Below, in pieces: positions 13,508 to 33,138 of a stretch of 64,000 nt of DNA. This stretch comes from Gaiellales bacterium (GTDB lineage Bacteria > Actinomycetota > Thermoleophilia > Gaiellales > Gaiellaceae). Each line of letters starts with the position of its first letter. The stretch's first letter is position 1. The translations under genes were made by a program, and so were the position numbers. Below the pieces are notes generated by a model that saw only the letters and a program-made list of their open reading frames with translations, made no database searches and had not been told where the DNA came from. The stretch covers positions 44,718-108,717 of the forward strand of contig JAXLSV010000007.1 in NCBI GenBank assembly GCA_046330385.1, in the 5' to 3' direction.

Positions 13508-14820
13508 CCGCACCAGCTTGCGACGAACTGGGCGTACACCTGCGCTGCGAGCCGTAGCTGCTCGGTCTCCAGGTACTCGTTCGCGACGTGGCACTGCGCG
13601 AGCGCGCCGGGGCCGCAGATGATCCCCGGCAGCTTTCGCTCGCCGTACCAGGCAAGGTCGGTTGCCGCGCCGAAGCCCTGAGGCGTCGCATCGATACCCA
13701 CCGTCTCGAGACACGAGGAGAGGATCTGGACTGCCGGGTGGTCGAGCGGCACGTCGAGGGGCGGGAAGTAGATGTTCCCGAGCTTCCACGTGAACCGGGG
13801 TGGATGCTCACGGAGCCACGGGTCGACCGCTGCGACCGCGGCGACGACGTCCTCGACCTCCTGCTTGACGGTCTCGAACGTCTCGTCCGGGTAGAACCAG
13901 AGGTTGTACTCGACCGAGCAGTAGTTCGGGGCGGTGCCGGCGTTCGAGAAGAGGTTGAGACGGCCATCGGCGCCGCCTCCCGGGCCACCGACGATGATCG
14001 CCGGGGAGAGCGTGTTGAAGCCCGCCGGGAGGATCGGGTGAGCCTTGGCGTTCGCCCACGTGCGCTCGAGCTCCTGCAGGGCGACGATCAGCTTCACCAC
14101 CTTCTCGACCGCGTTGACCCCTCCCCCGCCCTTCCCGCCGGCGTGAATCGAGAGGTAGCGCGTCGACGCGTGCGCCTCGGAGCCCTCGACCTCGATCCGG
14201 AAATGGACGAGACCACCCTCGGCCGCACAGAGCCGTAGCTCCGTCGGCTCGAGGGACAGCGTGACGTCACACGGGTGGGAGCGCTCCACGATCTCCCGCG
14301 TGCCATTGCCCACCACCTCTTCGTCGCTGACGACGTGGAACACGATGTCGCCGCGCGGTACGAAGCCCGCGCCAAGCGCCGTCTTCACTGCCCACATCGC
14401 GGCCGCGAGCCCGCCCTTCATGTCGGTCGCGCCGCGCCCGTAAAGGCGCCCGTCGACGACCTCGCCCGCGAACGGGTCGTGGCTCCACGCCCCCCGATCA
14501 CCGACCGGGACGACGTCGACGTGCGCGTTGAACGCGACCGACCGACCACCACCCGTCCCACGCCGGCGCGCCACGATCACCGGGTGCGCGGGGAACGTCA
14601 TCGACGGCCCCACGTCCCACTGCTCGATCTCGAACCCGAGCGGCTCGAGGAAGCCGACGACGTGGTCGATGCACCTCCTCGCCTCGTCGGGGAAATGCGT
14701 GGCCTCCCTCGCCTGGCTCTCAGTCCGGAAGGCGACCAGCGTCCGCAGGAGCTCCTCGAGCCCTTCCTGCGTGCGCCCGACCGCATCGACGAGCGCTCCG
14801 TGATCGGCGGACGAGGTCAT
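13504..14820 (-). CDS. M20/ArgE-DapE family deacylase
   Basis: NAHVDVV, GRGATDMKGG, SDEE, CHVANE metal-binding motifs. Confidence 0.9.
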   Translation of the reverse strand: MTSSADHGALVDAVGRTQEGLEELLRTLVAFRTESQAREATHFPDEARRCIDHVVGFLEPLGFEIEQWDVGPSMTFPAHPVIVARRRGTGGGRSVAFNAHVDVVPVGDRGAWSHDPFAGEVVDGRLYGRGATDMKGGLAAAMWAVKTALGAGFVPRGDIVFHVVSDEEVVGNGTREIVERSHPCDVTLSLEPTELRLCAAEGGLVHFRIEVEGSEAHASTRYLSIHAGGKGGGGVNAVEKVVKLIVALQELERTWANAKAHPILPAGFNTLSPAIIVGGPGGGADGRLNLFSNAGTAPNYCSVEYNLWFYPDETFETVKQEVEDVVAAVAAVDPWLREHPPRFTWKLGNIYFPPLDVPLDHPAVQILSSCLETVGIDATPQGFGAATDLAWYGERKLPGIICGPGALAQCHVANEYLETEQLRLAAQVYAQFVASWCG

Positions 14821-15968
14821 TCGATGTCAGCCGGAACAGCCGGCGGCGCGGTCGCGGCGGCGGGAACGTCACGGCGGACGTTCCGGCCGTTGGAGCCGAA
14901 GAGATGCACGCGCGACGAGTCGAACCGGAGAGTGACGTTGTCGCCGGCGGCGACAGCAGTCTCGGGATCCGTCCGCACCTGCACCGTGGTTCCCCCCGCC
15001 TCGACGGTGAGGTACAGGTCCGACCCGACCGGTTCGAGGAACTCGACGCGCCCCGGGATCCCGCCCGGCTCGCCCGGAGCGGCGAGGCGGAAGTGCTCGG
15101 GTCGCAGCCCGAACGACACCTCGCCGTGGATCTCCGCCTCGTGCTCGAGCGCTGCCGGGTCGAGCACGTCCGCGGAGAGGTTGACGTCGACGCCGTTCCC
15201 GTGGAACCGCCAGCCACCGTCGACCTGCTCGAGCGCGCCGACGATCAGGTTCATCGGCGGCGCACCGAGGAACGTCGCGACGAAGACGTTCGCCGGCCGG
15301 CGATACACCTCGTTCGGTGTCCCGACCTGCTGGAGCACGCCGTGGTTCATCACCGCGATCCGGCTTCCCATCGTCATCGCCTCGACCTGGTCGTGAGTGA
15401 CGTACATCGTCGTGATCCCCAGTCGCTGATGCAGCTCGATCAGCTCGAGTCGGGTCTGCAGGCGGAGCTGGGCGTCGAGGTTGGAAAGCGGCTCGTCCAT
15501 CAGAAACGCATGCGGCTCGCGCACGATCGCCCTCGCGAGCGCGACCCGCTGCCGCTGACCGCCCGAGAGCTGTCCGGGCAGGCGCTGCAGCAGCTCCTCG
15601 AGCCCGAGGATCGCCGCGGCTCGCCGAATCGCCTCGTCGATCTCCGCTTTCGACTTCTTCGCGATCTGCAATGGGAAGGCGACGTTCTTGTACACCGTCA
15701 TGTGCGGATACAGCGCGTAGTTCTGGAACACCATCGCGACGTTCCGCTTCACGGGGTCGACGAAGTTCACGAGTCGACCGCCGATCACGATCTCGCCGGC
15801 GTCGGCGTCTTCGAGCCCGGCGACGACGCGGAGGATCGTGCTCTTGCCGCACCCGGACGGACCGAGCAGCACGAGGAACTCACCGTCCGCCACGCTGAGC
15901 GAGACGTTGCTGACGGCCTCGACCTTGCCGAACCGCTTGACCAGCTGCTTCACGACGATCTCAGCCAA
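14817..15968 (-). CDS. Carbohydrate ABC ATP-binding protein (MalK/MsmK type)
   Basis: GPSGCGKST, LSGGQRQRVALARA, MDEPLSNLDA, YVTHDQ. Confidence 0.95.
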   Translation of the reverse strand: MAEIVVKQLVKRFGKVEAVSNVSLSVADGEFLVLLGPSGCGKSTILRVVAGLEDADAGEIVIGGRLVNFVDPVKRNVAMVFQNYALYPHMTVYKNVAFPLQIAKKSKAEIDEAIRRAAAILGLEELLQRLPGQLSGGQRQRVALARAIVREPHAFLMDEPLSNLDAQLRLQTRLELIELHQRLGITTMYVTHDQVEAMTMGSRIAVMNHGVLQQVGTPNEVYRRPANVFVATFLGAPPMNLIVGALEQVDGGWRFHGNGVDVNLSADVLDPAALEHEAEIHGEVSFGLRPEHFRLAAPGEPGGIPGRVEFLEPVGSDLYLTVEAGGTTVQVRTDPETAVAAGDNVTLRFDSSRVHLFGSNGRNVRRDVPAAATAPPAVPADIE

Positions 15969-16001
15969 CGCGTCTCCTTCGGGTCGACCACGACATCCGG
16001 G

Positions 16002-16919
16002 TCACTGCTTCAGCGCCCCTGCCATCGACGCCTGGACGAACCACTTCTGGAAGACCAGGAAGATGAGGATGACCGGCACCATCGTCATCACCGCCGCCGC
16101 GGAGATCACGCCCCAGTTGGTCACGAACTGACCCTGCAGCGACGCGATGCCCACGGTGAGCGTCTTCATGTCGTCGGAGGTCGTGATCACGAGCGGCCAG
16201 AGGAAGTTCACCCATTGGAACATGAACGTGAAGATCCCGAGCACGACGATCGCCGGCTTCATGAGGGGCAGGACGATCCGACGGAAGATCAGCCACTCGC
16301 CGGCCCCATCGAGCCGAGCCGCCTCGACGAGCCCCTCGGGAAGCGTCCCGATGAACTGGCGCATCATGAAGACCCCGAGCGGGCTCACGACCATCGGCAG
16401 GATCATCGCCGGGTACGTGTTGATGCCGCTGTGGGTCCAACCCGGCAGGTGCGCGATCATGATGTAGAGGGGCGCGATCAGCACGGCGGTCGGGATCATC
16501 AGCGTCGAGAGGACGAGCGCGAAGAGCAGCGTTCGCCCCGGGAAGCGCAGGCGCGCGAACGCATACCCCGCCATCGCGTCGATCACGAGCGTGATCAGCG
16601 TCACGGTCGTTGCGAACACGAGCGTGTTGAGCGCCCAGCGCAGGTAGCTCGTCTCGTGGAGGATCGTGCTGAAGTTGCCCCAGAAGAGCGAGTTCGGAAT
16701 CCAGTCGGGCGGGTAGCTGAAGAGCTCGTAGCTCTCGCGAAAGGACGGCGAGAGGAGATAAAGGAACGGGCCGACCGCGATCACCGCGAAGACCGCGAGG
16801 ATCACGTATGCGATCACCGCCTTGGCGATGTGCACGACCCGATGCCGCCGCGCCGCGGCCGCGTACTCGGCGTGGGCCGGCGTGCCGCCGTCGAACGTGT
16901 CGGAGCCCGGGGTCGACAT
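16002..16919 (-). CDS. Carbohydrate ABC permease (MalG-like)
   Basis: AGYAFARLRFPGR, EAARLDGA motif. Confidence 0.9.
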   Translation of the reverse strand: MSTPGSDTFDGGTPAHAEYAAAARRHRVVHIAKAVIAYVILAVFAVIAVGPFLYLLSPSFRESYELFSYPPDWIPNSLFWGNFSTILHETSYLRWALNTLVFATTVTLITLVIDAMAGYAFARLRFPGRTLLFALVLSTLMIPTAVLIAPLYIMIAHLPGWTHSGINTYPAMILPMVVSPLGVFMMRQFIGTLPEGLVEAARLDGAGEWLIFRRIVLPLMKPAIVVLGIFTFMFQWVNFLWPLVITTSDDMKTLTVGIASLQGQFVTNWGVISAAAVMTMVPVILIFLVFQKWFVQASMAGALKQ

Positions 16920-17876
16920 CTACGACGCCCTCTCGCGGCGTCGGTCGGACAGCACCCAGAAGGACACCGCCGTGAGCGCGAGGATGATCAGAAGAAGCAA
17001 CACCGCCGCGGCATAGCCCTGGCCCGTCTCCTGGAACTGGAAGAGTCGCCTCCAGATGAACCACACGAGCGTCGAGGTCGACTCGTTCGGGCCGCCCTGG
17101 GTCAGGACGTACACGGTGTCGAACACCTGGAAGTTGGCGATGATCGCGATCACGACCGCGAACAGGAGCATCGGCTTCAGCAGCGGCAGGGTCACGCGCC
17201 GGAAGCGGTAGAGCCCGCGCGCACCGTCGACGCGTGCCGCGTCGTTCAGCTCGTCCGGGATGCTCTGGAGGCTGGCGAGGAAGTAGAGGGTCCAGAAGCC
17301 GAGCCCACGCCAGACCTCGGCAAGGACGATCGTCAGCAGCGCGAGCGTGCCGCTGCCGAGGATGTTGAGCCGGTCGAGACCGACGGCGTCGAATGTGAGG
17401 TTGATCAGACCGAAGTCGAAGTTGGTGAGGAACTGCCAGATCAGCCCGACGAGGACGGCCGGCGCGAGGAGCGGCACGTAGAGGGCGAGCTTGAAGACGT
17501 TGCTCCCCTTCCGGTACCGGTTGAGGAGGAGGGCGAGGAACAGCCCGAGGATGAAGACGAGGAAGATCGCCTGGACGACGTACAGCACCGTGTTCCGGAT
17601 CGACGCCGTCAGCTCGGAGTCGTCGGCGATCGTCCGCCAGTTGTCGAGACCGACGTACCGCGCCTCGTCGAGGATGCCCCCCTGGTTGAAGCTGAGCCAG
17701 ATCGACCAGATCGTGGGGGCGAGCAGGAAGACGAGGAAGGGGATGAAGTACGGCAGGAGGAAGAGGTAGCCCTTGACGCTGCGCCGGAGCCGGTACCGTG
17801 AGCGCGCTCGCCGGTACTCCGCTTCGCTCAGTGTCAGCTGATCCCAGGTCTCCCTCGAAGCTCCTGTCGCCTCCAT
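16920..17876 (-). CDS. Carbohydrate ABC permease (MalF-like)
   Basis: YVGLDNW, QSIPDELNDAARVDGA, QGGPNEST. Confidence 0.9.
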   Translation of the reverse strand: MEATGASRETWDQLTLSEAEYRRARSRYRLRRSVKGYLFLLPYFIPFLVFLLAPTIWSIWLSFNQGGILDEARYVGLDNWRTIADDSELTASIRNTVLYVVQAIFLVFILGLFLALLLNRYRKGSNVFKLALYVPLLAPAVLVGLIWQFLTNFDFGLINLTFDAVGLDRLNILGSGTLALLTIVLAEVWRGLGFWTLYFLASLQSIPDELNDAARVDGARGLYRFRRVTLPLLKPMLLFAVVIAIIANFQVFDTVYVLTQGGPNESTSTLVWFIWRRLFQFQETGQGYAAAVLLLLIILALTAVSFWVLSDRRRERAS

Positions 17877-17903
17877 CCCCTTCGCTCGTCCAGTCCCGTC
17901 GTC

Positions 17904-19274
17904 CTAGCTCTTCAGGATCCGGGTGCCTTCGGCCTGCGCCTTCGCCATCGCGGCCCTCACCGTGCTCTTGCCGCTGGCCGCCGCCTCGATCGCCTTTCCG
18001 TAGACGCTCGTCAGCTGGGCCATCTTCGGGTGGGTCGGAAGCCCGTCCCAACCCTTCAGGACGTAGCTGTTGACGCGTGCGACCTGAGCGTCACCCTTCG
18101 AGGTGTTGACGTCCTTACGCACCGGCGCCCACCCGTAGTGCGCACCGAACTCGTTCGCGAACGCCGGGGACGAGAGGAACTTGACGAGCTCCCACGCCGC
18201 ATCCTTGTTCTTGCTCTTCGAGGCCATCACCCAGTGGCCGGTGGTCGAGAAGATCGTCCGCTTGCTGCCGAGCCCGACCGGGTTGACGAAGTTCCACTTG
18301 AACGGGAGCTTCTCCTGACGGAACACGCTGAGCCGGAGCGGCTCGTCCTGGAGGAACGCCAGGCGCCCGCCCTTGAACAGCGCGACGCCGCCTTCGCGGT
18401 CGTACTGCCCGACGGGCGGCTGCACCTTGTGCTTGAGGATCAGGTCGACGACGGCCTGCGTCCCCGCGATCACGCCCGGGTTCGTGAACGTCACACGCTT
18501 GCCGTCCTTCGAGATGATGTCCGAGCCCAGGTTGTGGATGTAGCAGTAGTTGAAGTACCAGGTGAAGTCCTTGTCGGTCATCGGGGTGTTGAAGCCCCAG
18601 ACGTTCGGGGGATCCGCGACCTTCAGGCACGCCTGCGCCAGCTCGGCCATCGTCGTCGGGATCTTGGTGACCCCAGCCTTCTTGAGCAGGTCCTCGTTGT
18701 AGTACATGACCGTGCCGCCGATGATGCACGGCAGGCCCCAGAGCTTGCCCTGATACGTGCTCTTCCTGAACGTGTTCGGGATGAACTTGGCGGCGGTTGC
18801 CTTGTACGCCGGCGAGTCGAGCCACTTCTTCGTGTTCAGGACCTCGAGCACGCCCTTCGTCCCGAGGTTCGTGAGATCCGTGCTCGTCTGGTAGCTGACG
18901 TCATACGGGTTCGGCCCCGCGTAGTTCGACGCGTACGACGCCTGCTCGACGTTCCACGGCACGATCGTGTGCTTGACGTTGATGCCGGTCTTCGACGTGA
19001 ACGACTTGAGGAGCTTGCCGATCACATCCTTCTCATCTGTCCCGAACGGCGCCTTGGCAAAGGAGAGCTCCACTCCTTCGAACGGGCCACGCGCACGGTC
19101 GCGGATGCTGATCCGCGTCCCCGCTGCGGAGGCCTCGCCGATCAGCACCCCTGCGCTCGGCAGCGCAAGCCCGACGGCCGCCGCCTTCTTGAGGAACTGG
19201 CGTCGGCTCTCGCCACCAGTCCCCTCGGTCACGGGTGCGTCGCCCCCGTGGCTGGAGTCGTCCATTGCGCGCAA
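17904..19274 (-). CDS. Carbohydrate ABC substrate-binding protein with Tat signal
   Basis: SRRQFLKK twin-arginine motif; MYYNEDLLKKAG family 1 binding-protein signature. Confidence 0.9.
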   Translation of the reverse strand: MRAMDDSSHGGDAPVTEGTGGESRRQFLKKAAAVGLALPSAGVLIGEASAAGTRISIRDRARGPFEGVELSFAKAPFGTDEKDVIGKLLKSFTSKTGINVKHTIVPWNVEQASYASNYAGPNPYDVSYQTSTDLTNLGTKGVLEVLNTKKWLDSPAYKATAAKFIPNTFRKSTYQGKLWGLPCIIGGTVMYYNEDLLKKAGVTKIPTTMAELAQACLKVADPPNVWGFNTPMTDKDFTWYFNYCYIHNLGSDIISKDGKRVTFTNPGVIAGTQAVVDLILKHKVQPPVGQYDREGGVALFKGGRLAFLQDEPLRLSVFRQEKLPFKWNFVNPVGLGSKRTIFSTTGHWVMASKSKNKDAAWELVKFLSSPAFANEFGAHYGWAPVRKDVNTSKGDAQVARVNSYVLKGWDGLPTHPKMAQLTSVYGKAIEAAASGKSTVRAAMAKAQAEGTRILKS

Positions 19275-19515: not shown

Positions 19516-19848
19516 TCAGGCCCGGCGGTACGGGTGCGGATCGCCAAAGACGTCGATCCCCACCGTCCCCGGATACATATGGGCGCTGTGAGGCACGCCC
19601 GGCTCGATCGCGTACGTGTCGCCCGGCCGGAACGTCGTCGTCTCCCCGCCGATCGTGAAGTCGACCTGCCCGGCGAGCACGACTCCCCACTGGGCCCCGT
19701 GGACGTGCTCCGGGAGATCCGCCCCGTCGGGGAGCTCGTAGAACATCGCGACCGCTTCGGGCCCGTGCAGCAGCCACCCGTTGAGCGGGACGACCGGGTT
19801 CTCCACCTGCGGGAACGAGCGGATCAGCGGCGAGAACGGCTCGCTCAC
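19516..19848 (-). CDS. Cupin domain protein
   Basis: PEHVHGAQWGVVLAG...GVPHSA; GTG 19848 overlaps the SDR stop. Confidence 0.8.
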   Translation of the reverse strand: MSEPFSPLIRSFPQVENPVVPLNGWLLHGPEAVAMFYELPDGADLPEHVHGAQWGVVLAGQVDFTIGGETTTFRPGDTYAIEPGVPHSAHMYPGTVGIDVFGDPHPYRRA

Positions 19849-20684
19849 GCCGTCAAGAGGCCGCCGTCGACGACGATCTGGGCGCCGCTGACGTACGCGC
19901 CGAGATCGGACGCGAGGAAGAGCACCGCCCGCCCGACGTCGTCGGGGCTCGCGAGCCGCCGCAGCGGGATCCGCGCCTCGTAGGCCGCCCACTGGGCATC
20001 GACGTCGATCCCCTCGGGCGCCCCCGCCTCGACGAACTCGACCGCACCCTCGGTGAGCGAGGGGCCCGGAGCGACTGCGTTCACGCGAATCTGGTCAGGG
20101 CCGAGCTCGAGCGCCATCGTCTTCGTCAACCCCCAGATCGCGTGCTTCGACGTCCCGTAGTGGGCGAGGCCCGAGCCGCTCGGGTGGATCGCGTCGATCG
20201 AGCTGATGTTGACGATCGAGCCGCCACCGCCCCGCTCCCGCATCCGCGCGGCCGCGGCCCTGATGCAGAGGTACGCACCGCCGACGTTGACCCCGAGGAT
20301 CCGGTGAAACTCCGCCGGCTCGAGGTGCTCGAGGAGGTAGTTCGAGAACACACCTGCGTTGTTGACGAGGATGTCGAGCCCGCCGAGCTCCCTGATCGCC
20401 GTGTCCATCAGCGCCTCGACGTCCTCCTCGCGCGAGACGTCGCCTGTGCGCCCGGCAACCGAGTGCCCGGCGCTCCGCAGCGCGTCGATCGCAACGCTCA
20501 GCCTGTCCTCGCGCCGATCACCGAGCACGACCGACGCCCCCGCGCTCGCCAACCGGCGAGCGCAGGCGAACCCGAAGCCCTGAGCGGCTCCGGTGACGAC
20601 CGCGACCTTTCCGTCGAGGTCGAGGAGCTGCTCGACGGTCTGGAAGTCGCTGCTCGGTTGGCGCCCAGGGCTCAGTGCGGGCAC
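19845..20684 (-). CDS. Short-chain dehydrogenase/reductase
   Basis: TGAAQGFG, NNAG, YGTSK. Confidence 0.9.
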   Translation of the reverse strand: MPALSPGRQPSSDFQTVEQLLDLDGKVAVVTGAAQGFGFACARRLASAGASVVLGDRREDRLSVAIDALRSAGHSVAGRTGDVSREEDVEALMDTAIRELGGLDILVNNAGVFSNYLLEHLEPAEFHRILGVNVGGAYLCIRAAAARMRERGGGGSIVNISSIDAIHPSGSGLAHYGTSKHAIWGLTKTMALELGPDQIRVNAVAPGPSLTEGAVEFVEAGAPEGIDVDAQWAAYEARIPLRRLASPDDVGRAVLFLASDLGAYVSGAQIVVDGGLLTA

Positions 20685-20783: not shown

Positions 20784-21656
20784 ATGGCGACACTCCTCAT
20801 CGGCTACGACACCGAGTCAGCCGCGGTGGGTGAAGGGCTCGCGCGGTTCATCGGCCCGGACGTCCCGCAGTACCTCTGCGCCCTCGACCCCGAGACGACG
20901 CGCCGCGGGGTCTCGCTGCTCCGCAAGCTGCACGAGGAGCTCGAGGCGCCGTGCACGTTCTTCCTCTGCGGACGGACGCTGCTCCACGCGCTCGACGCGA
21001 TCGAGCCGCTCGCCGCCTCGGAGCTGTTCGATCTCCAGCAGCACACCTACAGCCACGTCGTGTTCCGGGAGGTGCACTATCAGCCGCTCGGCTCCGACGC
21101 GCCGGAGGCGGTGCTCGCCGAAACGCCGCCGGTCGCGCTCCGGGAGGAGCTCGCCGTCACGGCAGAGCTGATCCGCAAGTACCTCGGGCGCGAGTGCATC
21201 GGGCTGCGAACACCGTTCGGCTACTACCGCGGTCTGCGAGGCCGCCCCGACCTCCTCGGGATCATCCAGGAGACCGGGCACCGCTTCGTGACCTCCTGGG
21301 GCCGCAACGAGGAGAACGGCAACCCGACCCCGTGGGTGCAGCCGTTCACCTACGACGAGGAGGGCTTCCCGGGGCTGCTCGAGATCCCGTTCCAGTTCTG
21401 GCTCGACGGGATCTGGTTCGACGCCCACGGGTACGACCAGGGTGCCGGCTTCCGCGCCGCGCTCGAGGGCGCGATCGACGAGATCGCCGACACCGATACC
21501 GTCTTCGCGACGGCGTTCCACGAGTGGTGCGCGGTCGAGGCGAACGAGGAGGGCACCGGCTGGATCCGCGGGCTGATCGAGCACGCGCGACGCCGCGACG
21601 TCACGGTGATGAGCTACGCCGACTACTGGAGGAGCGTCACGGCCGGCGTCGCGTGA
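20784..21656 (+). CDS. Polysaccharide deacetylase (NodB/CE4-like) family amidohydrolase
   Basis: GYDTE, QQHTYSH, GLRTPFG, LLEIP motifs. Confidence 0.75.
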   Translation: MATLLIGYDTESAAVGEGLARFIGPDVPQYLCALDPETTRRGVSLLRKLHEELEAPCTFFLCGRTLLHALDAIEPLAASELFDLQQHTYSHVVFREVHYQPLGSDAPEAVLAETPPVALREELAVTAELIRKYLGRECIGLRTPFGYYRGLRGRPDLLGIIQETGHRFVTSWGRNEENGNPTPWVQPFTYDEEGFPGLLEIPFQFWLDGIWFDAHGYDQGAGFRAALEGAIDEIADTDTVFATAFHEWCAVEANEEGTGWIRGLIEHARRRDVTVMSYADYWRSVTAGVA

Positions 21657-21677
21657 CGCTCCTCGCCCCCCGCGCCT

Positions 21678-22751
21678 CTAGCCAGCCACGGCAGCCTCTG
21701 CCGGGCGCATCGCGTCGACCACGATCTCACCGGCGACGATCACCGGCTCGTCGTCGAGGAACAGGTCGCAGTTGCGCATCGGGATGTCGAGGTGGCAGCT
21801 CGTGTGGTTCGGCCCGCCGACCAGGTCGTTCGGGCCGGTCGAGAACAACACGTTCCCGGAGAACGCCCTCGGCTCCATGCCGTGACCGCGGCTGTCCGTG
21901 CCGAGCGACGCCCACTTGGCACGCTCGTCGAGGCCCCAGCCGATGTGCGAGAGCCCGAACGCGTCGGGGTCGTCGAAGTCGGTCAGATACCCGCGCATGA
22001 GCTCCGCCTGGAACCCGTCGCCCCCGATGTGGACGATCCGACCTGCCTCGATGACGAGCTCGATCGGGTCCTGGACGTACTGCTTGAAGGGGAGCAGGAT
22101 GTCGCCGCGGTCGACCACGACCCGGCCGTCGATGCCGTCGTCGGCCCCGCAGGTGAGCACCATCCCTCCGGAAGGCCAGTGGTCCCACTGGCCGGGCTTG
22201 TCGACGTACCCGTACTGCCCCTTGGTCGGGTACATGCCGATCTTGTAGGTCACGTCGCTGCCGGCCCGGTTGGTGAACCGGAGCGTCCGTGCCGCCGCGA
22301 GTGTCTCGACCGCCACGTCCGTGCGCCGCGCAAGCTCCTCGGTGGGGAACATCCGGGCGAGCAGGTCGACGGGCTCGATGCAGGTGAGGATGCGCGTCCC
22401 GGCGGACTGGATCTCGGTCAGCTCGTCGCTGAAGAGGAGGAAGAGCGTCTCCACGACCATGTCGGCGTTCTTGAGCGCATCGATTGCGACACGGTTGCCC
22501 GCGAGCGGGGTCTTGCCTACCGTCCACACCCCGACCTCCCCGCTCGTCGCCGACGAGGAGTACGGCAGGCGCACATGCATGACGGTGGCGCCGATCCGTT
22601 GCCCGGCCGCCAGGAACGCGTCGACGTACTCGGCGCGCTCCTCTCCCTGGGACAGCAACACGAGGCTCTCGGAGGGCTCGAGCGCACAGCGGCGCAACAT
22701 GCGCTCACAGAGATCGGTGAACATCGACTGGCTAAACGAGGTGCTCGACAT
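21678..22751 (-). CDS. nicX: 2,5-dihydroxypyridine 5,6-dioxygenase-like protein (NicX family)
   Basis: Collinear with NicX as recalled: GTRILTCIEP, QYGYVDKPGQWDHWPSG, GDILLPFK, SHIGWGL, RAFSGNVLFSTGPN, CHLDIPMRNCD. The His/His/Asp Fe-ligand motifs are present. Confidence 0.85.
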   Translation of the reverse strand: MSSTSFSQSMFTDLCERMLRRCALEPSESLVLLSQGEERAEYVDAFLAAGQRIGATVMHVRLPYSSSATSGEVGVWTVGKTPLAGNRVAIDALKNADMVVETLFLLFSDELTEIQSAGTRILTCIEPVDLLARMFPTEELARRTDVAVETLAAARTLRFTNRAGSDVTYKIGMYPTKGQYGYVDKPGQWDHWPSGGMVLTCGADDGIDGRVVVDRGDILLPFKQYVQDPIELVIEAGRIVHIGGDGFQAELMRGYLTDFDDPDAFGLSHIGWGLDERAKWASLGTDSRGHGMEPRAFSGNVLFSTGPNDLVGGPNHTSCHLDIPMRNCDLFLDDEPVIVAGEIVVDAMRPAEAAVAG

Positions 22752-22813: not shown

Positions 22814-23815
22814 CTACGCGGAGACATGGGCGAACGGTTGGACGTGGCAGGCCGCGGCGTGCCCATCGGGGCCGACGACGTCGAGGGTCGGGTCGATCGC
22901 GCTGCAGACGTCGGTCGCGAACGCGCAGCGCGTCCTGAAACGACAGCCGGACGGGATCGCGAGCGGCGAGGGCAGCTCCCCGACGATCGCAGGCCGATCG
23001 CGTCGCCGCGCGGGGTCGGGTGACGGGTTGGCGTCGAGCAACCCCCGCGTGTACGGATGCTGGGGTTGCGCGAACACCCGGGCCGTCGGCCCGATCTCGA
23101 CGATCCGTCCGAGGTACATCACCGCCACCGTGTCCGAGATGTGCGCGATGACGGAGAGCTGATGGGAGATGAACAGCATCGAGAGCCCGAGCCGGGCCCG
23201 GAGCGTCTCGAAGAGGTTGAGGATTTGCGCCTGCACCGACACGTCGAGGCTCGAGACGGCCTCGTCGGCGATCAGCAAGTCAGGGCCGACCGCGAGGGCC
23301 CGCGCGATCGCGACGCGCTGCCGCTGCCCTCCGGAGAGCTCGCGCGGACGGCGTTCAGCCAGCCGTCCCGGCAGCCCCACGGTCTCGAGGAGCTCACTGA
23401 CGAAGGTCTGCTCGGCGCCCCGGCCCACGCGGCCGTGGACGCGACCTGCCTCGAGAACGGTGCTCCCCACCGAGAAGCGCGGGTTGAGCGAGGTGTATGG
23501 ATCCTGGAAGACCATCTGCATCCGCTGCCGGAGCCGCGTCAGCTCCGCACCCTCGGCCGATCCGACGTCGACCCCGTCGAAGGTGACGGCGCCCTCGTCC
23601 AGCTCCTGGAGCCGGATCACGCAGCGGGCGAGCGTGCTCTTGCCGCTGCCCGACTCGCCCACGATCCCGAGGGTCTCGCGCGGGGCCAGTCGGAGCGAGA
23701 CGGCATCGACGGCGGTGACGTACTGCCCCGGCCGCCTGCGGATACGGTCGCCAAGCGTTCGCCTGGCCGGGAACCGCCTCGTGACACCAGCCACCTCGAG
23801 CAGCGGCTCGGTCAT
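22814..23815 (-). CDS. Peptide/nickel-type ABC ATP-binding protein (OppF-like)
   Basis: GESGSGKST, LSGGQRQRVAIARAL, ADEAVSSLD, C-terminal Cys cluster; ATG 23815. Confidence 0.9.
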   Translation of the reverse strand: MTEPLLEVAGVTRRFPARRTLGDRIRRRPGQYVTAVDAVSLRLAPRETLGIVGESGSGKSTLARCVIRLQELDEGAVTFDGVDVGSAEGAELTRLRQRMQMVFQDPYTSLNPRFSVGSTVLEAGRVHGRVGRGAEQTFVSELLETVGLPGRLAERRPRELSGGQRQRVAIARALAVGPDLLIADEAVSSLDVSVQAQILNLFETLRARLGLSMLFISHQLSVIAHISDTVAVMYLGRIVEIGPTARVFAQPQHPYTRGLLDANPSPDPARRRDRPAIVGELPSPLAIPSGCRFRTRCAFATDVCSAIDPTLDVVGPDGHAAACHVQPFAHVSA

Positions 23816-24855
23816 GCGTGCTCCCGGTCGAGCGCGGTGTCGCGTCCGACGGCGTCGGCGGAGAACGGGCACGCCGTAGTTCGCCCCGGGCCGGCCGACT
23901 CGAGCGTCATCGGCACGTCGGCGCAGGCCTCTTGCACGAAGCGGCAGCGCGCCTGGAACGGGCACCCGCCGCCGAGGTCGCGCACGTCGGGTGGTTGGCC
24001 GGGAATCGTGTCGAGCTCGCCGCGGCGCCGCTGGTCGTCGATCCGCGGGATCGCCTCGAGCAGCGCTTTCGCATACGGGTGCCGCGGGTCGGCGAACAGC
24101 TCGCGCGCCGGCGCAACCTCGACGATCCGCCCGGCGTACATCACGGCGACGCGATCGCAGGTCTGCGCGATCACGCCCATGTCGTGCGAGACGAGCACGA
24201 TCGCCATTCCCGTCTGGTCGCGGATCTCGCGAAGCAGCAGCAGGATCTGGTCCTGGATCGTCACGTCCAGAGCCGTCGTCGCCTCGTCCGCGAGCAGCAG
24301 CCTCGGCTCGCCGGCGAGCGCGAGGGCGATCATCACCCGTTGCCGCATCCCCCCGGAGAGCTCGTGCGGGTACGAGCGCATCCGCCGCTCAGGAGCCGGG
24401 ATCCCGACCCGGTCGAGAAGCTCGATCCCTCGGCTCCGGGCCTCCCGCGCGGCAAGCCCCGTGCGCTGCGTCAGCGTCTCGGTGAGCTGTCGACCGATCG
24501 TCAGGACCGGGTTCAGGGAGCTCATCGGGTCCTGGAAGACCATCGCCAGCCCGCCGCCGCGAACCGCCCGCAGCTCTCGGGCATCGAGCGCGAGCAGGTC
24601 GCGACCTTCGAAGACGACCTCGCCCGCCATCACCGCTCCCGGCTCAGGGACGAGGCCGAGCAGCGCCCGGCAGGTGACGCTCTTGCCGGATCCGGACTCA
24701 CCGACGAGGCCCACGATCTCGCCCTCTGCAACCTGCAGCGAGACGTCGTCGACAACCCGGGCGACCCCGCGCATCGTCGGGAACCCGACCGTCAGCCCGC
24801 GGACGTCGAGGAGCGGCGCGGGGGTGACGGGGCTCGATGACGGCAGGGAGCTCAC
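23812..24855 (-). CDS. Peptide/nickel-type ABC ATP-binding protein (OppD-like)
   Basis: GESGSGKS, YPHELSGGMRQR, ADEATTALD; GTG 24855. Confidence 0.9.
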   Translation of the reverse strand: MSSLPSSSPVTPAPLLDVRGLTVGFPTMRGVARVVDDVSLQVAEGEIVGLVGESGSGKSVTCRALLGLVPEPGAVMAGEVVFEGRDLLALDARELRAVRGGGLAMVFQDPMSSLNPVLTIGRQLTETLTQRTGLAAREARSRGIELLDRVGIPAPERRMRSYPHELSGGMRQRVMIALALAGEPRLLLADEATTALDVTIQDQILLLLREIRDQTGMAIVLVSHDMGVIAQTCDRVAVMYAGRIVEVAPARELFADPRHPYAKALLEAIPRIDDQRRRGELDTIPGQPPDVRDLGGGCPFQARCRFVQEACADVPMTLESAGPGRTTACPFSADAVGRDTALDREHA

Positions 24856-25733
24856 AGCGTCAGGCGCAGCTGGCGGCCGAGGCGATCGGCGAGCCCGTCG
24901 CCGACCATGCTGAACGCGACCCCGAGCGCGACGATGACGAGACCGGGGATCGTCGCCACCCACCATGCCGTGCGCAGCACGCTCTGCCCCTCGGCGACCA
25001 TCGCGCCAAGCTCGGCGGTGGGCGGCTGCACGCCGAGCCCGAGGTACGAGAGGCTGGCAAGGAGGAGCAGGTTGAGAACGAGGTCGGCCGCGGAGAACAC
25101 GACGTTCGAGCGAAGCAAGTTGGGCATCGCGTGCCGGAAGACGAGTCGCGTCTGCGAGTAGCCGAGCGCGCGACCGGCGAGCATGAAGTCCTGCTCGCGG
25201 AGCACGAGCATCTCGCCGCGGGTGAGCCTCGCGTAGAGCGCCCAGCCTACCGCGAGCACGCCGATGTAGACGCCCTCGAGCCCGGCGCCGACGATCGCGA
25301 CGATCGCGATCATCAACACAAGGAACGGAAACGCGATCACGCCGTCGACGACGCGCATCGCGATCGCGTCCGCCCAGCCACCCCGGTACCCGGCGTAGGC
25401 GCCGATCACCATCCCCACGACGAGCGGCAGATACGTGATCACGAGGATCACCTGCAGGTCGAGGCCGAGTGCGTACAGCACGCGGGTCGCGATGTCACGG
25501 CCAAAGGTGTCCGTGCCGAAGGGGTGCGAGAGCGACGGCGCCTGCAGCCGCTGGAGGAGGTCGACCTCGTTGGGATCGTACGGCGACGCGAGCCGCCCGA
25601 CGACGGCGACGACGACCGCGAGCCCGACGAGCCCGGCGCCGAGATAGAAAGTCGTGTTCGACCAGCGCCGCTCGCGAAGCGCGAGGCGACGGAGCGCGGA
25701 CTCGTCCGGGAACCGATCGAGCGCGGTGCTCAC
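24852..25733 (-). CDS. Peptide ABC permease (OppC-like)
   Basis: HPFGTDTFGRD, RHAMPN, LSYLGLGVQPP; GTG 25733. Confidence 0.9.
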   Translation of the reverse strand: MSTALDRFPDESALRRLALRERRWSNTTFYLGAGLVGLAVVVAVVGRLASPYDPNEVDLLQRLQAPSLSHPFGTDTFGRDIATRVLYALGLDLQVILVITYLPLVVGMVIGAYAGYRGGWADAIAMRVVDGVIAFPFLVLMIAIVAIVGAGLEGVYIGVLAVGWALYARLTRGEMLVLREQDFMLAGRALGYSQTRLVFRHAMPNLLRSNVVFSAADLVLNLLLLASLSYLGLGVQPPTAELGAMVAEGQSVLRTAWWVATIPGLVIVALGVAFSMVGDGLADRLGRQLRLTL

Positions 25734-26671
25734 GACGCGCCCAGCCTCACCCGCGGGTCGAGGAGCGAGTACGTGACGTCGGCGAGCAGGTTGATCGCGA
25801 TCACCATCAGCCCAAACACGAACACGAGGCCCTGGATCACCGGGTAGTCGCGGCTCAGGACCGACTGGACGAGCAGCGAGCCGAGGCCCGGGATCTGGAA
25901 GACGTTCTCGACGACGACCGTGCCGCTGATCAGGAACCCGACGTTGATCGAGAGCACCGTGATCAGCGGGATGAGCGAGGGTCGCAGCGCGTGGATGCCG
26001 ATGACCCGCCGGGGGCCGAGCCCACGGGCGTGGGCCGCCTCGACGTACTCGGAGCCCATCGTGTCGATCATGGTCGTCCGCAACGTGCGAAGGAGCATCG
26101 GCGCGAGATAGAGCCCGAGCGTGACCCACGGGAGGATCAGGTACTCGATCGCTCCGAACAGCCCGTCGCCGTAGCCCGAGACGGGCAGCAGGTCGAGCTC
26201 GAGCCCGAAGAGGAGCGCGAGCATCAGCCCGAGCCAGAACGTGGGCATCGCGAAGGCGACCATGCTCACCAGCCGAACCACGTGGTCGACAGGCTGGTTG
26301 CGGCGAACGGCGGAAAGCACGCCGAGCGGGACGGCAAGCATCACGGCGACAAGCACCGCGCCCACGATCAGGTAGAGGCTCGGGGCGATCCGGTCGAGGA
26401 TGAGCTCGCGCACCGAGGTCCGCCGGATGATCGAGTCGCCGAAGTCGAGACTGACCGCTCCGGTGGCGAACGAGACGAGCTGCTGCCCGAGCGACTGGTC
26501 GAGCCCGAGGTTCTCCTCGACCTGGGCGACCGCCTCGGGGGTGGCGTTGATCCCGAGCATGAGCTTCACCGGGTCGCCCGGGATCAACCGAATCACGAGG
26601 AAGGACACGGTCAGCACCCCGATCATCACCGGGATGCTGAGCAGGATCCGCTTGCCGATGTACTCGAGCAC
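25730..26671 (-). CDS. Peptide ABC permease (OppB-like)
   Basis: LIPGDP, YVEAAHARG, VENVFQIPGLG, RDYPVIQG. Confidence 0.9.
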   Translation of the reverse strand: MLEYIGKRILLSIPVMIGVLTVSFLVIRLIPGDPVKLMLGINATPEAVAQVEENLGLDQSLGQQLVSFATGAVSLDFGDSIIRRTSVRELILDRIAPSLYLIVGAVLVAVMLAVPLGVLSAVRRNQPVDHVVRLVSMVAFAMPTFWLGLMLALLFGLELDLLPVSGYGDGLFGAIEYLILPWVTLGLYLAPMLLRTLRTTMIDTMGSEYVEAAHARGLGPRRVIGIHALRPSLIPLITVLSINVGFLISGTVVVENVFQIPGLGSLLVQSVLSRDYPVIQGLVFVFGLMVIAINLLADVTYSLLDPRVRLGAS

Positions 26672-26735
26672 GCTCAGGAGAGGCTACGGGTGGGGCAGCA
26701 TCGTCGCTGCCCCACCCGCGGTCCTTGTGACCGGT

Positions 26736-28355
26736 CTATTTGTCGAGCCAGACATCCTCGAGGTCCCACCAGCCGCTCGGCAGGACCTTGAATCCCTTCA
26801 CGTAGTCCTGGACGCCGTGGATCGAGGGCAGGAAGAAGAGCGTCACCCACGGAGCCTCGTCCATCGCCGCCTGCTGCACCTGCGGCCACAGCTCCTTGCG
26901 CTCCTCCTCGGTGCCCTGCGCGGCCTTCTCGGTCAGCTCGAACAGGCTGTCCGGAGGCTGCCAGCCCGTGAAGAAGCCCTTGAGGGCGTTCGATTCCGCC
27001 GTGTCGTAGAAGAGCAGCGCGACCTCGTCCTCGACTGTCACGTCGGAGGTGAACTTGACGAGCGGCACCGCCACGTCGTAGTCGTAGGCGGCGTAGCGGT
27101 CGAACAGAGCGCCACCGTCGACCTCTTCGATCTTCAGGTCGACGCCGACGTCCTTCCACTGCGCCTGGAGCACGGTCGCGAGCTCCCGCAGATGGCTTGC
27201 TCCTGCAGGGATCAGCATCGTCGAAGTGATCCCGTCCGGTGCGGCCTCGGCCATCAGCTCCTTGGCCTTGTCCACGTCGTACTCGTACGGGGCGACCTCG
27301 TCGGGCCCGGCGGTGTACTTGCCCTCCGGGATCATGCTGTTCGCGACCTTCCCGACACCGCCGTACACGGCGGTCCGGATCGCTTCCTTGTCGGTGGCGT
27401 AGTTCAGCGCCTGCCTGACCCTGACGTCGTCGAACGGCTTGCGCTTGTGGTTGAGGAAGACACCCTCCCAGCGGACGATGTCGTCGACCCGCACCTCGAA
27501 GTCGCCCGCGTCGGTGAGCTCCTTGATCTGGGTGAACGGAACGCCCTCGAGCAGGTCGGCCTCGCCGTCCTGCATCTTGAGGACGCGCGCGTTGTCGTCG
27601 GCGATGAAGTCGAACCGGACACCGTCGAGGTACGGCTTGCCGTCCTCCCAGTAGTTCTCGTTCTTCTCGAGCTCGATGAACGAGCCGGGCACCCACTCCT
27701 TCAGCTTGAAGGGGCCTGTGCCCACGGGATTCTTCCAGTGGTCGTTCCCCTCGGCCTCGACGAGCTTCTTGGAGACGATCGACGCCGGGAAGACGCTCAG
27801 GTTTTCGAGGAGGGCGCCGACCGGGTGCTTGAGATTCACCGCAACGGTCTTGTCGTCGACGATCTCGATGTCCTTGATCCCGTATGCAAGGGTCGGGATG
27901 TTGACGTTGATCTTCGGATCGATGAACCGATCGAGCGAGAACTTCACGTCCTCGGCGGTGACCGGGTCGCCGTTCGAGAACTTCGCGTCGCGGAGGGTGA
28001 ACGTCCAGCGCAACCCGTCGTCGGAGCTCTCCCACGACTCGGCGAGACCCGGGCCGACGTCGGGAAGCGTGTCGGGATCGGCCTCGACGAGGGTGTTGAA
28101 GATCTGCACCCGGACGAAGATCGAGCCGTTATCGGCCGGCCCCATGGGGTCGAGCGACTGCGTCTCGAAGTTCCGGGCGAACCGGAGAATGCCACCCGGC
28201 TTCGGCGTGCCCTCGTCAGCGGCGTTGGTGTCCCCCTCGGAGGACTTCTCGTCCCCGCTCGTGCACCCGGCGGCAACCACGGCCAGGACAAGAGCGAGCA
28301 GCGCCAGCAGCGTCAACACCCGTCGGCGCGGCCCGCGTGCACCCTTCGCAACCAC
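26736..28355 (-). CDS. ABC substrate-binding lipoprotein (OppA/DppA family 5)
   Basis: Lipobox VAAGC, LAESWE, PVGTGPF, VRQALNYA. Confidence 0.9.
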   Translation of the reverse strand: MVAKGARGPRRRVLTLLALLALVLAVVAAGCTSGDEKSSEGDTNAADEGTPKPGGILRFARNFETQSLDPMGPADNGSIFVRVQIFNTLVEADPDTLPDVGPGLAESWESSDDGLRWTFTLRDAKFSNGDPVTAEDVKFSLDRFIDPKINVNIPTLAYGIKDIEIVDDKTVAVNLKHPVGALLENLSVFPASIVSKKLVEAEGNDHWKNPVGTGPFKLKEWVPGSFIELEKNENYWEDGKPYLDGVRFDFIADDNARVLKMQDGEADLLEGVPFTQIKELTDAGDFEVRVDDIVRWEGVFLNHKRKPFDDVRVRQALNYATDKEAIRTAVYGGVGKVANSMIPEGKYTAGPDEVAPYEYDVDKAKELMAEAAPDGITSTMLIPAGASHLRELATVLQAQWKDVGVDLKIEEVDGGALFDRYAAYDYDVAVPLVKFTSDVTVEDEVALLFYDTAESNALKGFFTGWQPPDSLFELTEKAAQGTEEERKELWPQVQQAAMDEAPWVTLFFLPSIHGVQDYVKGFKVLPSGWWDLEDVWLDK

Positions 28356-28380: not shown

Positions 28381-28413
28381 CTATAACCTATAGTCGTCGT
28401 TGTCAAGGGTCAA
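28381..28413 (-). promoter_or_regulatory. Promoter TTGACC-N17-TAGGTT with palindrome CTATAACCTATAG, embedded in the 3' end of the upstream hydantoinase A gene
   Basis: -35 at 28413-28408, -10 at 28390-28385, palindrome at 28381-28393; GAGGAGG RBS precedes the OppA-like gene. Confidence 0.6.
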
Positions 28414-30435
28414 TGCGAAGTTCCCCTCGGCGTCGAGGAGAGCGCGCCAGCCGGTCGGAACCCACACCGTGGCGTCGAGCCCTTCGACGATCGCAGGCCC
28501 GACGGCTGCGTATCCGGCCGGCATCGCCTCCCAGACGAGGAGCGCGGCGTCGACCAGCTGCCCGGCCCGGTCGTCGTACGCGACCCGAGTCCCGACCTCG
28601 CCGCGATACCCGTCTGCGGCCGGGGCGCGTCGAGGCACGAGCTCCTCGATCCCGGGGGTGCGCCCGACAGCGCTCGCCCGGACCGCGAGCACCTCATGCT
28701 GGTGCCCGGCCAGCGCGAACCCGTAGAGCCGCTCGTGCTCGGCGTCGAACGCGCCGGCGACCGCCTCGACGGTCAGGGGCAACGGCGGCGCGGGAACCCG
28801 GATGTCCCAGTTCTGGCCGACGTACTTCATGTCGAAGGAGAGCTCGGTCTCGGGCTCACCGTCGTACCCCTCGTTCCGGAGCTCGCGCACGACCTCGGCC
28901 AGCATCTCTCCGGCGACCACGCCAAGCCCGCCCGCCCCCATCCGCTCGAGCCGAATCGGATACGACCGGACACGATCGACCCGCAGATCGGAGAGGATGA
29001 GCCCGCCCGCCGAGAGCAGCCCGGGATGCGCAGGGACGATCACCTCGGCGATCTCGAACTCCTCGGCGAGCAGCGCGGCGTGCAGCGGGCCTGCGCCGCC
29101 GCCCGCGAGCAGTGAGTAGTCGCGCGGGTTGACCCCTCGCTCCGCAGTCAGCGCGCGGATCTCTTTCGCCATGTTCGAGACGCAGATCCTGATCACCCCT
29201 GCCGCCGCCTGGAACAGATCGAGCCCGAGCGGAGCGCACACGTCCCGCTCGAGCGCGACGCGGGCCAGATCGGGATCGATCTCGAGCGCCCCGCCGAGCA
29301 GCGACCGAGCACCGATCCGCCCGAGCACGACGTTCGCATCGGTCACCGTCGGGTGGAGCCCGCCCTGCCCGTAGCACGCAGGCCCCGGGCTCGCGCCGGC
29401 GCTCTGCGGGCCGACCTTCAGTCCGCCCCCGGCGTCGACCCAGGCGATGCTCCCGCCGCCCGCACCGATCGTCCTGATGTCGAGCATCGGCAGGTTGAGG
29501 GGCGTCGTCGCGTCGAGCCACCCCTGGGTCGTGATCCCAGGCGCCCCGCCCGTGACGAGCGCGACGTCAGAGCTCGTCCCGCCGACGTCGATCGAGATCA
29601 CGTCTGGCCTGCCCATCCGAACGCCGTGGACGCTCGCCGCGACCACGCCGCCCGCAGGGCCCGAGAGAAACGTGTCGACCGGGCGGGCGCGCGCCGTGCT
29701 CGCGGTCATCACCCCACCGTTCGAGCGCATGATCAGCGGCTCACCGACGACACCGCCCGCCGCGAGCGAATCGGCGAGATGTCCGAGGTATCCCGCCATC
29801 ACCGGCTTCACGTACGCGTCTGCGATCGTGGTCGAGGCGCGCTCGTACTCGCGCCACTGGGGCAGGACGTCGCTCGACAGCGAGAGCCACAGCCCGGGAT
29901 GCCGCGCGCGAGCGACCTCCGCAGCGGCGAGCTCGTGCGCGGGATCGAGATAGGAGAACAGGAAGCAGATCGCGAGGCTCTCCGCGCCCTGCGCCACCAG
30001 GTGGTCGACCGCCGCCTCGACCTCGTCGAGCGCGAGCGGCTCGACCTCCGCGCCGTAGGCGTCGAGCCGGCCGGCGACGTCGCACCGGAGATGGCGCGGG
30101 ACGAGCGGCTCGGGCTCGTCCCAGAGCAGGTTGAAGACCTCGCTCTCCGGCTTGTTGCCCCGCCGGATCTCAGGGATGTCACGGTGTCCCTCGGTGGTGA
30201 GGAATCCCGTCGTCGCGCCGCGCCGCTCGATGATCGCGTTCGTCGCAACAGTCGTCCCGTGGACGAGCCGGGCGATCCTGGTTGGATCGAGCCCGAGCTC
30301 CGACAGCCCCTGGACGACCGCGCGCGAGGGATCTTCGGGTGTCGAGCGCAGCTTGTGGAAGCGTTGGCTCGCCCGGCCGGGATCGACCGCGACGATGTCC
30401 GTGAACGTGCCACCGACGTCGACGCCGACGATCAC
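28381..30435 (-). CDS. Hydantoinase/oxoprolinase A subunit (ATP-binding), copy 1
   Basis: GVDVGGTFTD, HGTTVATNA, LSGPAGG, DVGGTSSD, IGAGGGS, TVTDA; GTG 30435. Confidence 0.9.
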   Translation of the reverse strand: MIVGVDVGGTFTDIVAVDPGRASQRFHKLRSTPEDPSRAVVQGLSELGLDPTRIARLVHGTTVATNAIIERRGATTGFLTTEGHRDIPEIRRGNKPESEVFNLLWDEPEPLVPRHLRCDVAGRLDAYGAEVEPLALDEVEAAVDHLVAQGAESLAICFLFSYLDPAHELAAAEVARARHPGLWLSLSSDVLPQWREYERASTTIADAYVKPVMAGYLGHLADSLAAGGVVGEPLIMRSNGGVMTASTARARPVDTFLSGPAGGVVAASVHGVRMGRPDVISIDVGGTSSDVALVTGGAPGITTQGWLDATTPLNLPMLDIRTIGAGGGSIAWVDAGGGLKVGPQSAGASPGPACYGQGGLHPTVTDANVVLGRIGARSLLGGALEIDPDLARVALERDVCAPLGLDLFQAAAGVIRICVSNMAKEIRALTAERGVNPRDYSLLAGGGAGPLHAALLAEEFEIAEVIVPAHPGLLSAGGLILSDLRVDRVRSYPIRLERMGAGGLGVVAGEMLAEVVRELRNEGYDGEPETELSFDMKYVGQNWDIRVPAPPLPLTVEAVAGAFDAEHERLYGFALAGHQHEVLAVRASAVGRTPGIEELVPRRAPAADGYRGEVGTRVAYDDRAGQLVDAALLVWEAMPAGYAAVGPAIVEGLDATVWVPTGWRALLDAEGNFALTLDNDDYRL

Positions 30436-32444: not shown

Positions 32445-32445
32445 T

Positions 32446-33129: not shown

Positions 33130-33138
33130 CGCCGCCCG

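Follow-up and report, generated by a model that had tools for sequence, protein, structure and literature searches.

The NicX family of ring-cleaving dioxygenases has a narrow record. No substrate besides 2,5-dihydroxypyridine (2,5-DHP) is known for NicX, and every homolog characterized so far feeds the maleamate pathway (PMC7910607). A literature search for members of the family that accept other substrates, or that work outside this pathway, found nothing relevant. The enzyme from Pseudomonas putida KT2440 (structures 7CN3, 7CNT, and 7CUP) holds a mononuclear Fe(II) through four ligands, His265, Ser302, His318, and Asp320, the last of which is positioned by Arg293 (PMC7910607). The canonical gene clusters (nicXDFE, ndpEFGH, pic, and 3hpd) add three enzymes to this ring-opening one: a maleate isomerase, a deformylase of the α/β-hydrolase type, and an amidase of the isochorismatase type. 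Here, we describe a NicX homolog whose genome has none of these three in a comparable context. Its gene, nicX, lies at 21678..22751 on the minus strand of a 64-kb stretch of DNA (“the window” below, meaning the whole stretch analyzed) from a Gaiellales bacterium (assembly GCA_046330385.1, contig JAXLSV010000007.1).

The view that we favor, with confidence that lies only a little on the favorable side of even, is the following. The gene would encode an active Fe(II) dioxygenase that cleaves a ring of the 5-hydroxy-2-pyridone type, possibly a substituted one, with hydrolases encoded nearby acting next and with maleate isomerization bypassed. As part of that same judgment, its branch of the family would be specific to the Thermoleophilia, and would have been taken into a conserved island that serves the catabolism of nitrogen-ring compounds or lactams.

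Positions are given in the numbering of the window, and residues of the dioxygenase in the numbering of P. putida NicX. The assembly that contains the window has 3.61 Mb in 14 contigs, and is 97% complete and 0.9% contaminated. It was compared with a sample of 151 Gaiellales genomes, whose tallies count one unpublished genome (G060), although no particular claim rests on it. The nearest NicX loci come from soil metagenome-assembled genomes (MAGs) of Gaiellaceae, Gaiella, and Thermoleophilia. The island is described from about 15 loci of the clade that contains the window protein, called here the core clade.

A NicX homolog with its metal site

The protein (P0001) has 357 amino acids, against 350 in P. 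putida NicX. A phmmer search of the PDB matched it to 7cn3, the P. putida enzyme, with an E-value of 3.2e-92, aligning residues 7-347 with residues 4-345 of the chain at about 50% identity. It is also 50% identical to NdpE, and Hpo and PicD-type enzymes have likewise been named as its nearest kin. Precomputed annotation assigns it to PF26233 (NicX). The four Fe ligands are present in the motifs SHIGWG (His265), FSTGPN (Ser302), and CHLDIP (His318 and Asp320), and Arg293 is kept. The same five residues are kept in nearly all members of the clade. The ratio of nonsynonymous to synonymous substitution rates (dN/dS) against orthologs is 0.14-0.28, which means that nicX is under purifying selection. 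Judged by its sequence, then, the gene is a full-length NicX homolog with an intact metal site.

The original prediction for this DNA had said as much, citing the SHIGWG and CHLD motifs, and had placed the gene at the end of a peptide-type ATP-binding cassette (ABC) transporter operon and convergent with a NodB-like gene. Both placements are correct for the window. A five-gene operon of the Dpp/Opp type precedes the gene on the same strand and ends 62 nt before it; within this gap are a GAGAGG ribosome-binding site and nothing resembling a terminator. At its other end, its 3' terminus is 21 nt from the 3' terminus of a convergent PF01522 gene (20784-21656, plus strand). The link to the ABC operon, as set out below, does not extend to the relatives.

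Two kinds of NicX in one order

Some homolog of NicX is found in 42 of the 151 Gaiellales genomes. In five of them (G002, which is of the same genus as the window genome, G051, G043, G056, and G081), the homolog is 56-59% identical to the window protein and keeps canonical company. In four of these five loci (L036 and L038-L040), the immediate neighbors of NicX are an amidase of the NdpG type (48-54% identity), a deformylase of the NdpF type (41-45%), and a maleate isomerase (50-61%); the fifth (L037, in G051) has the amidase and the deformylase, without a maleate isomerase in the 18.5 kb that were fetched. None of the canonical genes lies within 10 kb of the window nicX or of its 73-86%-identical relatives. 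Unlike nicX of P. putida, the gene in this clade never adjoins nicD, nicF, nicE, or nicC.

A tree was inferred with IQ-TREE (LG+C20) from 32 NicX sequences labeled by their genomic context. Support is 100/100 for the core island clade and 98/99 for the sister island clade (L015, L017, and L023); the two canonical clades, one actinobacterial and one alphaproteobacterial, have 88/89 and 99/97. The label, canonical or island, changes once on this tree. Phylogenetically, the window protein thus belongs to a clade that is separate from, well supported against, and paralogous to the canonical-context NicX of the Gaiellales. The core clade was found in only two of the 151 genomes (G000 and G017).

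The surroundings of the other kinds of NicX can be recorded here. The canonical Gaiellales clusters (L031 and L036-L040) hold NicX together with PPDK_N/PEP-utilizer proteins, a three-subunit Mo-hydroxylase, CoxG, and maleate isomerase, and resemble clusters of the 3-hydroxypyridine (3hpd) type. One of them, the metagenomic L031 (JGI 3300050314), has a second copy of NicX in addition to its Mo-hydroxylase and PPDK-like genes. In the sister island clade (the JGI contig of P0086; L015, L017, and L023), two short-chain dehydrogenases/reductases (SDRs) lie upstream, and an Amidohydro_2 gene, a peptidase S15 gene, and the same M20-CUT1 ABC operon as in the core clade lie downstream.

A third clade of NicX-like proteins, 36-40% identical (L026-L029), has Thr76, Ser177, and Asn308 with the Fe ligands intact. 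It is widespread in the Gaiellales (29 of 37 genomes of family f2, and 9 of 14 of family f3), and occurs also in Nanopelagicales and in other actinobacterial MAGs. Its surroundings are free of both canonical and island genes, and several of its tblastn matches contain an in-frame stop.

The search for canonical maleamate genes

The canonical queries were NicC, NicD, NicE, and NicF, together with NdpD, NdpF, NdpG, and NdpH. These were taken from annotated plasmid clusters (of Pseudomonas BYT-5, of Sphingobium, where the cluster is ndp, and of Rhizobium) and compared by tblastn with the whole genome that contains the window. A second set of queries came from L036, the canonical cluster from the same genus.

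Neither NicF nor maleate isomerase is encoded within the 64-kb window, as had been predicted, and the search of the genome recovered no maleate isomerase and no nicF of canonical appearance. Four maleate isomerase queries, one of them from the same genus, gave no match in the genome. A profile search with PF17645 also returned nothing there; its control genomes were likewise without signal, so that the absence of the isomerase rests mainly on the four protein queries. The genome has no ortholog of NicD. The best match to the NicD query, and the sole weak one, is a 23%-identical fusion of an α/β-hydrolase with a C-terminal cupin (46554..47777, minus strand, 407 amino acids), 24 kb from nicX; the NicD of L036 found nothing at E ≤ 0.01. 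A flavin monooxygenase of the NicC/NdpD (HspB) type gave no tblastn match in the genome at E ≤ 1e-3, in a search that did not include PicC, HpdABCDE, or HpaM. On the window's own contig, neither a Mo-hydroxylase nor a NicC-type enzyme was found.

The amidase is represented in the genome by only two isochorismatase (PF00857) genes, both on contig C7 and 23-30% identical to the NicF and NdpG queries. The best match to NdpG, at 30% identity, is thus on a contig other than that of the window, and the NicF of L036 reaches only 23-26%. The two genes on contig C7 might, of course, serve as a remote nicF. They were rejected in that role because their neighborhoods are unrelated to pyridine catabolism: one lies among genes for an E1 dehydrogenase, a glyoxalase fusion, and an enolase, the other among genes for a gluconolactonase, a zinc alcohol dehydrogenase, and a GT2 protein.

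Five other genomes that bear the island gave a similar picture for two of the genes. Maleate isomerase had no match in four of them and a weak, 25%-identical match in the fifth, and an ortholog of NicD was found in none.

Residues at the substrate site

Of the four residues of NicX that contact the substrate (Leu104, His105, Glu177, and His189), the window protein keeps Leu104 and His189. Position 105 is Phe where NicX has His, and position 177 is Gln where NicX has Glu. Neither change is diagnostic, because both occur in canonical-context proteins, Phe105 in NdpE and in the NicX of Rhizobium, Gln177 in the canonical-context homologs from Gaiellales. For this reason, neither was accepted as evidence that the substrate is new. 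NicX also stays active when it carries the H105F change (PMC7910607). Lys175 was considered as a binder of a substrate carboxylate, and was rejected because it covaries with Asp/Glu307 (as K-D/E, Q-Q, and hydrophobic-T/N/G pairs). This covariation suggests a salt bridge between the two residues.

More telling positions were sought by comparing 14 sequences from canonical contexts with 13 from island contexts, keeping sites that are invariant in the former and replaced in both island clades. Five positions divide the two contexts in this way: Q109L, R/H186Q, F194M, F196L/Y, and E308L/Q. Here, the window protein has Leu109, Gln186, Met194, Leu196, and Leu308, thus differing from NicX by Q109L, R186Q, F194M, F196L, and E308L; the sister island clade is also altered at all five. 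In addition, the window protein has one residue inserted after WPSG relative to 7cn3.

In NicX, Glu308 lines the wall that divides the two channels and touches His105, and the E308A variant retains half of the activity (PMC7910607). Along the sequence, positions 109, 186, 194, and 196 flank Leu104/His105 and His189, and position 308 flanks the ligand at 302. The structural paper on NicX and its supplements make no mention of residues 109, 186, 194, and 196 (PMC7910607). The pattern at the five positions suggests, though short of proof, a pocket that has been remodeled and made less polar. It suggests, in turn, that the substrate may be something other than plain 2,5-DHP, for example a compound with a substituent on the ring.

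The conserved island

The core-clade NicX genes lie within a recurring set of genes. On one side of NicX are a CE4/NodB-like gene, an SDR, a small cupin, often a second SDR, a CUT1-type ABC transporter, an M20 amidohydrolase, and a further SDR. On the other side are an RraA-like gene, a zinc-finger miniprotein, a fused HyuAB, and an operon in the order DHDPS, GntR, HyuA, HyuB, zinc finger, RidA, D-Ser-dehydratase-like, and RidA. The island contains three systems of the Hyu (hydantoinase/lactamase) type. Where canonical clusters have a deformylase, an amidase, and an isomerase, the window island thus has a CE4 hydrolase, an M20 protein, SDRs, a cupin, an RraA-like aldolase, RidA, a D-Ser-dehydratase-like protein, and the three Hyu systems. 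To find canonical and island paralogs within one order, together with a lactamase-rich island, is what distinguishes this case.

The position of nicX within the set varies in three ways. It is the last gene of a hyuB-hyuA-dpp unit in the window and in L009, and the last gene of the operon for Hyu, RidA, and the D-Ser-dehydratase-like protein in L003, L007, and L042. In L001, L002, L008, L010, L012, L016, and L024, it is divergent from RraA-HyuAB. A functional tie between nicX and the peptide-type ABC operon was rejected on these grounds: the position and orientation of the operon vary, and seven loci have none within 10 kb.

The constant company of three Hyu systems, together with a binding protein resembling AgaA and AapF, offers a lead, and only that, toward imported lactam or opine-like compounds. 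The binding protein in question is the SBP_bac_5 protein of the Dpp-type operon (26736-28355, minus strand), whose nearest PDB entries are 5u4o, AapF (7kz8), and AgaA, which binds agropinic acid (6hlx, E 2e-51), and not the classical DppA or OppA. HyuA/HyuB beside a Dpp operon recalls the uptake and ring opening of a lactam opine, as in the agropinic-acid aga operon, which is not known to include an enzyme of the NicX type.

In two of the loci, L002 and L003, several island genes, among them the NodB-like, Hyu, and D-Ser-dehydratase-like genes and, in L003, the C-terminus of NicX, are split within long-read MAG contigs. Assembly frameshifts are the more likely cause, rather than decay. The splitting produces a spurious dN/dS of about 1 for the NodB-like gene of L002.

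The NodB-like neighbor

The gene convergent with nicX (20784..21656, plus strand; P0121) matches PF01522 with 26.7 bits against a cut-off of 23.1, and would encode a metal amidohydrolase of the CE4/NodB-like type. It lies no more than 7 kb from NicX in all 15 core-clade loci; it is directly convergent with NicX in 10, and a Dpp operon stands between the two in the other 5. Among the 151 Gaiellales genomes, its distribution matches that of the core-clade NicX, with G000 and G017 as the sole carriers. Its dN/dS is 0.16-0.21.

Across relatives at 54-87% identity, the D9/E11, HTYSH, R142-T-P, and FHEW elements of this protein are invariant, as is H246. The metal motif, of the His-His-Asp type, is intact, with the Asp ligand a probable assignment. 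A sequence search of the PDB found no match. An AlphaFold2 model (pLDDT 84), compared by Foldseek, retrieved, as its closest structures, HP0310, the mycobacterial CE4 protein 3rxz, the PuuE allantoinase (3cl6), and 1z7a at TM-scores of 0.62-0.68 with probability 1.0, and ArnD, a CE4 deformylase, at rank 12. The PuuE/HP0310/ArnD branch resembles the window protein in predicted fold, in length (about 290 amino acids), and in having a single domain; it differs in sequence, the window protein being only 14-16% identical. Within this branch, ArnD is a precedent for deformylation, and PuuE acts on small cyclic amides. It is plausible from the model that the NodB-like protein hydrolyzes a small-molecule amide or formamide, as one of three candidates for such a role.

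Proposed function

If the favored view is correct, the residues His-Ser-His-Asp would hold Fe(II) as they do in NicX, and Gln177 and His189 would take hold of a ring of the 5-hydroxy-2-pyridone type by its lactam edge (N-H/C=O). Dioxygen would then cleave the C5-C6 bond, giving an N-acyl cis-enedioic amide, which would be an N-formyl amide were C6 unsubstituted. This amide would be hydrolyzed by amidohydrolases of the island rather than by NicD and NicF. The candidates, in order, are the convergent CE4/NodB-like protein and then the hydrolase-cupin fusion and the M20 protein. Because the genome yielded no maleate isomerase, the carbon skeleton would not be expected to pass through maleate to fumarate.

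A more specific version can be offered, although tentatively and as one that may well be wrong. Here, the substrate would be a 5-hydroxy-2-pyridone that is substituted at C6 or otherwise non-standard, and its cleavage would give an N-acyl amide needing a CE4 deacylase. The ring itself would arise in a network of lactam catabolism that is powered by three ATP-dependent lactamases of the Hyu type, and the route would end in chemistry of the RidA, D-Ser-dehydratase-like, and RraA-type aldolase kind.

Several observations speak against the favored view. The case for the NodB-like protein as the partner of NicX is one of adjacency. Since the NodB-like, M20, and hydrolase-cupin genes co-occur as one island, their co-occurrence cannot single out that partner. 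In the sister clade (60-66% identity, with His105, Gln177, and Gln308), NicX instead precedes a class-III aminotransferase and an amidase-signature enzyme. No enzyme that forms a dihydroxypyridine was found in the island. NicF-like paralogs, 45-58% identical to a Gaiellales NicF, exist elsewhere in four of the five other island-bearing genomes, where they form arrays of 3-5 isochorismatases (G151:C6:145-188 kb, G155:C5:304-387 kb, G152:C22, and G154:C5). The genomes with these arrays have no maleate isomerase beyond, at most, the one weak match given above, and the arrays are absent from the window genome and from G153, its closest relative.

The original prediction had gone further than the gene itself. 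It had proposed that the substrate is a substituted dihydroxypyridine or a related ring, and that the NodB-like, M20, or hydrolase-cupin proteins replace the deformylase and the amidase. A non-standard substrate or route is indeed plausible, given the lack of canonical maleamate genes in the genome at large, the separate clade, and the five positions; nothing, however, shows that a substituent is present, and plain 2,5-DHP is a possible substrate. As for the hydrolases, the NodB-like gene turned out to be the most constant neighbor of NicX, with no member of the co-inherited trio singled out. The prediction missed the strongest part of the context, which is the hydantoinase/lactamase, RidA, D-Ser-dehydratase-like, and RraA-like genes.

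Alternative explanations

The alternative that survives best is that the enzyme is an ordinary 2,5-DHP 5,6-dioxygenase. Its substrate would then be scavenged, or made by enzymes that were not recognized as such; non-orthologous hydrolases would process the product; and maleate would be disposed of by some step other than isomerization, such as hydration. The identity of about 50% to NicX is similar to the spread among canonical-context homologs, all of the catalytic residues and most of the binding residues are kept, with Q177 and F105 seen in canonical-context proteins, and half of the activity survives in the E308A variant of NicX (PMC7910607). Against this stands the separate NicX paralog that the same order holds beside NicD, NicF, and NicE, which makes the island clade a diverged duplicate or a transfer. 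Five positions that are invariant in canonical proteins are replaced. Further, no gene for forming dihydroxypyridine or for handling maleate was recognized in the island. We regard an ordinary 2,5-DHP dioxygenase as a possibility, but a doubtful one.

It is unlikely, in our judgment, that nicX is only a passenger of a mobile catabolic island, associated with its neighbors by co-inheritance and without a role in their pathway. The island is, to be sure, patchy, with the core NicX and the NodB-like gene in 2 of 151 Gaiellales genomes, and all of its genes co-occur. At least three different rearrangements have nevertheless left NicX beside a module of Hyu, RidA, or NodB genes, in two arrangements co-directionally, and purifying selection acts on it.

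The fold of NicX is related to that of the M29 aminopeptidases, and homologs are often named “leucyl aminopeptidase” in database records, but a hydrolase for peptides, or for amides derived from lactams, that enter through the Dpp-type transporter, whose operon nicX ends in the window and in L009, is very improbable, as the metal site is the mononuclear His-Ser-His-Asp site of NicX and not a peptidase site, the records so named sit in canonical nic clusters, and the Dpp linkage is not conserved.

Other genes of the window

The genes of the island can be located in the window as follows. Divergent from the NodB-like gene is an SDR (19845..20684, minus strand; PF13561/PF00106), which heads an operon of SDR, cupin, CUT1 transporter, and M20 genes; 75-92% orthologs of it are present in all core loci, and PDB sequence searches gave generic matches only. 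The small cupin that follows (19516..19845, minus strand) is 55% identical to a Cupin_2 gene of L001, its PDB match (4e2g, E 9e-10) being generic. The CUT1-type transporter (14817..19274, minus strand) comprises an SBP_bac_1 protein, two permeases, and a MalK-type ATPase, and is syntenic in the core and sister clades. The M20 protein of ArgE/DapE-like type closes this operon (13504..14820, minus strand; PF01546; 3pfo, E 1.5e-29). Within the 151-genome sample, a 75% ortholog of it occurs only in G017, with 36-45% paralogs elsewhere.

Directly upstream of nicX lies the Dpp/Opp-type transporter (22814..28355, minus strand), with an SBP_bac_5 protein, two permeases, and two ATPases; its position is variable among relatives. 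The first HyuA/HyuB pair (28381..32456, minus strand; PF01968/PF02538) heads the operon that ends in nicX, and has the same order in L009. The RraA-like gene, of the HMG/CHA aldolase type (3noj, E 2.6e-19), and the fused HyuA-HyuB of 1284 amino acids follow on the plus strand (32317..36984); in most relatives these are directly divergent from nicX. The operon of HyuA, HyuB, zinc-finger miniprotein, RidA, D-Ser-dehydratase-like protein, and RidA occupies 36993..43123 (minus strand), and is the one of which nicX is the last co-directional gene in L003, L007, and L042. A DHDPS-family lyase (43663..44586, minus strand; PF00701) stands at the head of that operon in L003 and L042. Of the 151 genomes, G000 and G017 alone have a full-length ortholog of the hydrolase-cupin fusion, which lies on the island contig. 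In the window, the fusion precedes a set of genes for the E1alpha, E1beta, and E2 components of a 2-oxoacid dehydrogenase (47823-51112).

Beyond these lie two further groups. At 52127-58717 (minus strand) are genes for a kynureninase-like protein (Aminotran_5 and KYNU_C), an MFS transporter, a PucR-type GAF regulator, a glutamine-synthetase-like protein, and a GntR-FCD protein, which may form a separate catabolic unit for aromatic amines or tryptophan-derived compounds. At the M20 end of the island (7213-10033 and 11055-13507) are genes for a class-C beta-lactamase-like protein, a DAO-type FAD oxidoreductase, a further small cupin, and a MocR-type GntR-aminotransferase regulator.

Implications

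Were the more specific and tentative version correct, the island would represent a new pathway for the degradation of nitrogen heterocycles, specific to soil Thermoleophilia, and its NicX would be the first enzyme of the family with a substrate other than 2,5-DHP. The Gaiellales also offer a natural experiment within one order. One NicX paralog keeps the company of the canonical deformylase, amidase, and isomerase there; another is found in an island without them, with five positions changed. A direct comparison of the two paralogs bears on whether substrates have diversified on the NicX scaffold. It could also give a function to a soil lineage that is abundant but uncultured, and to its triple lactamase island.

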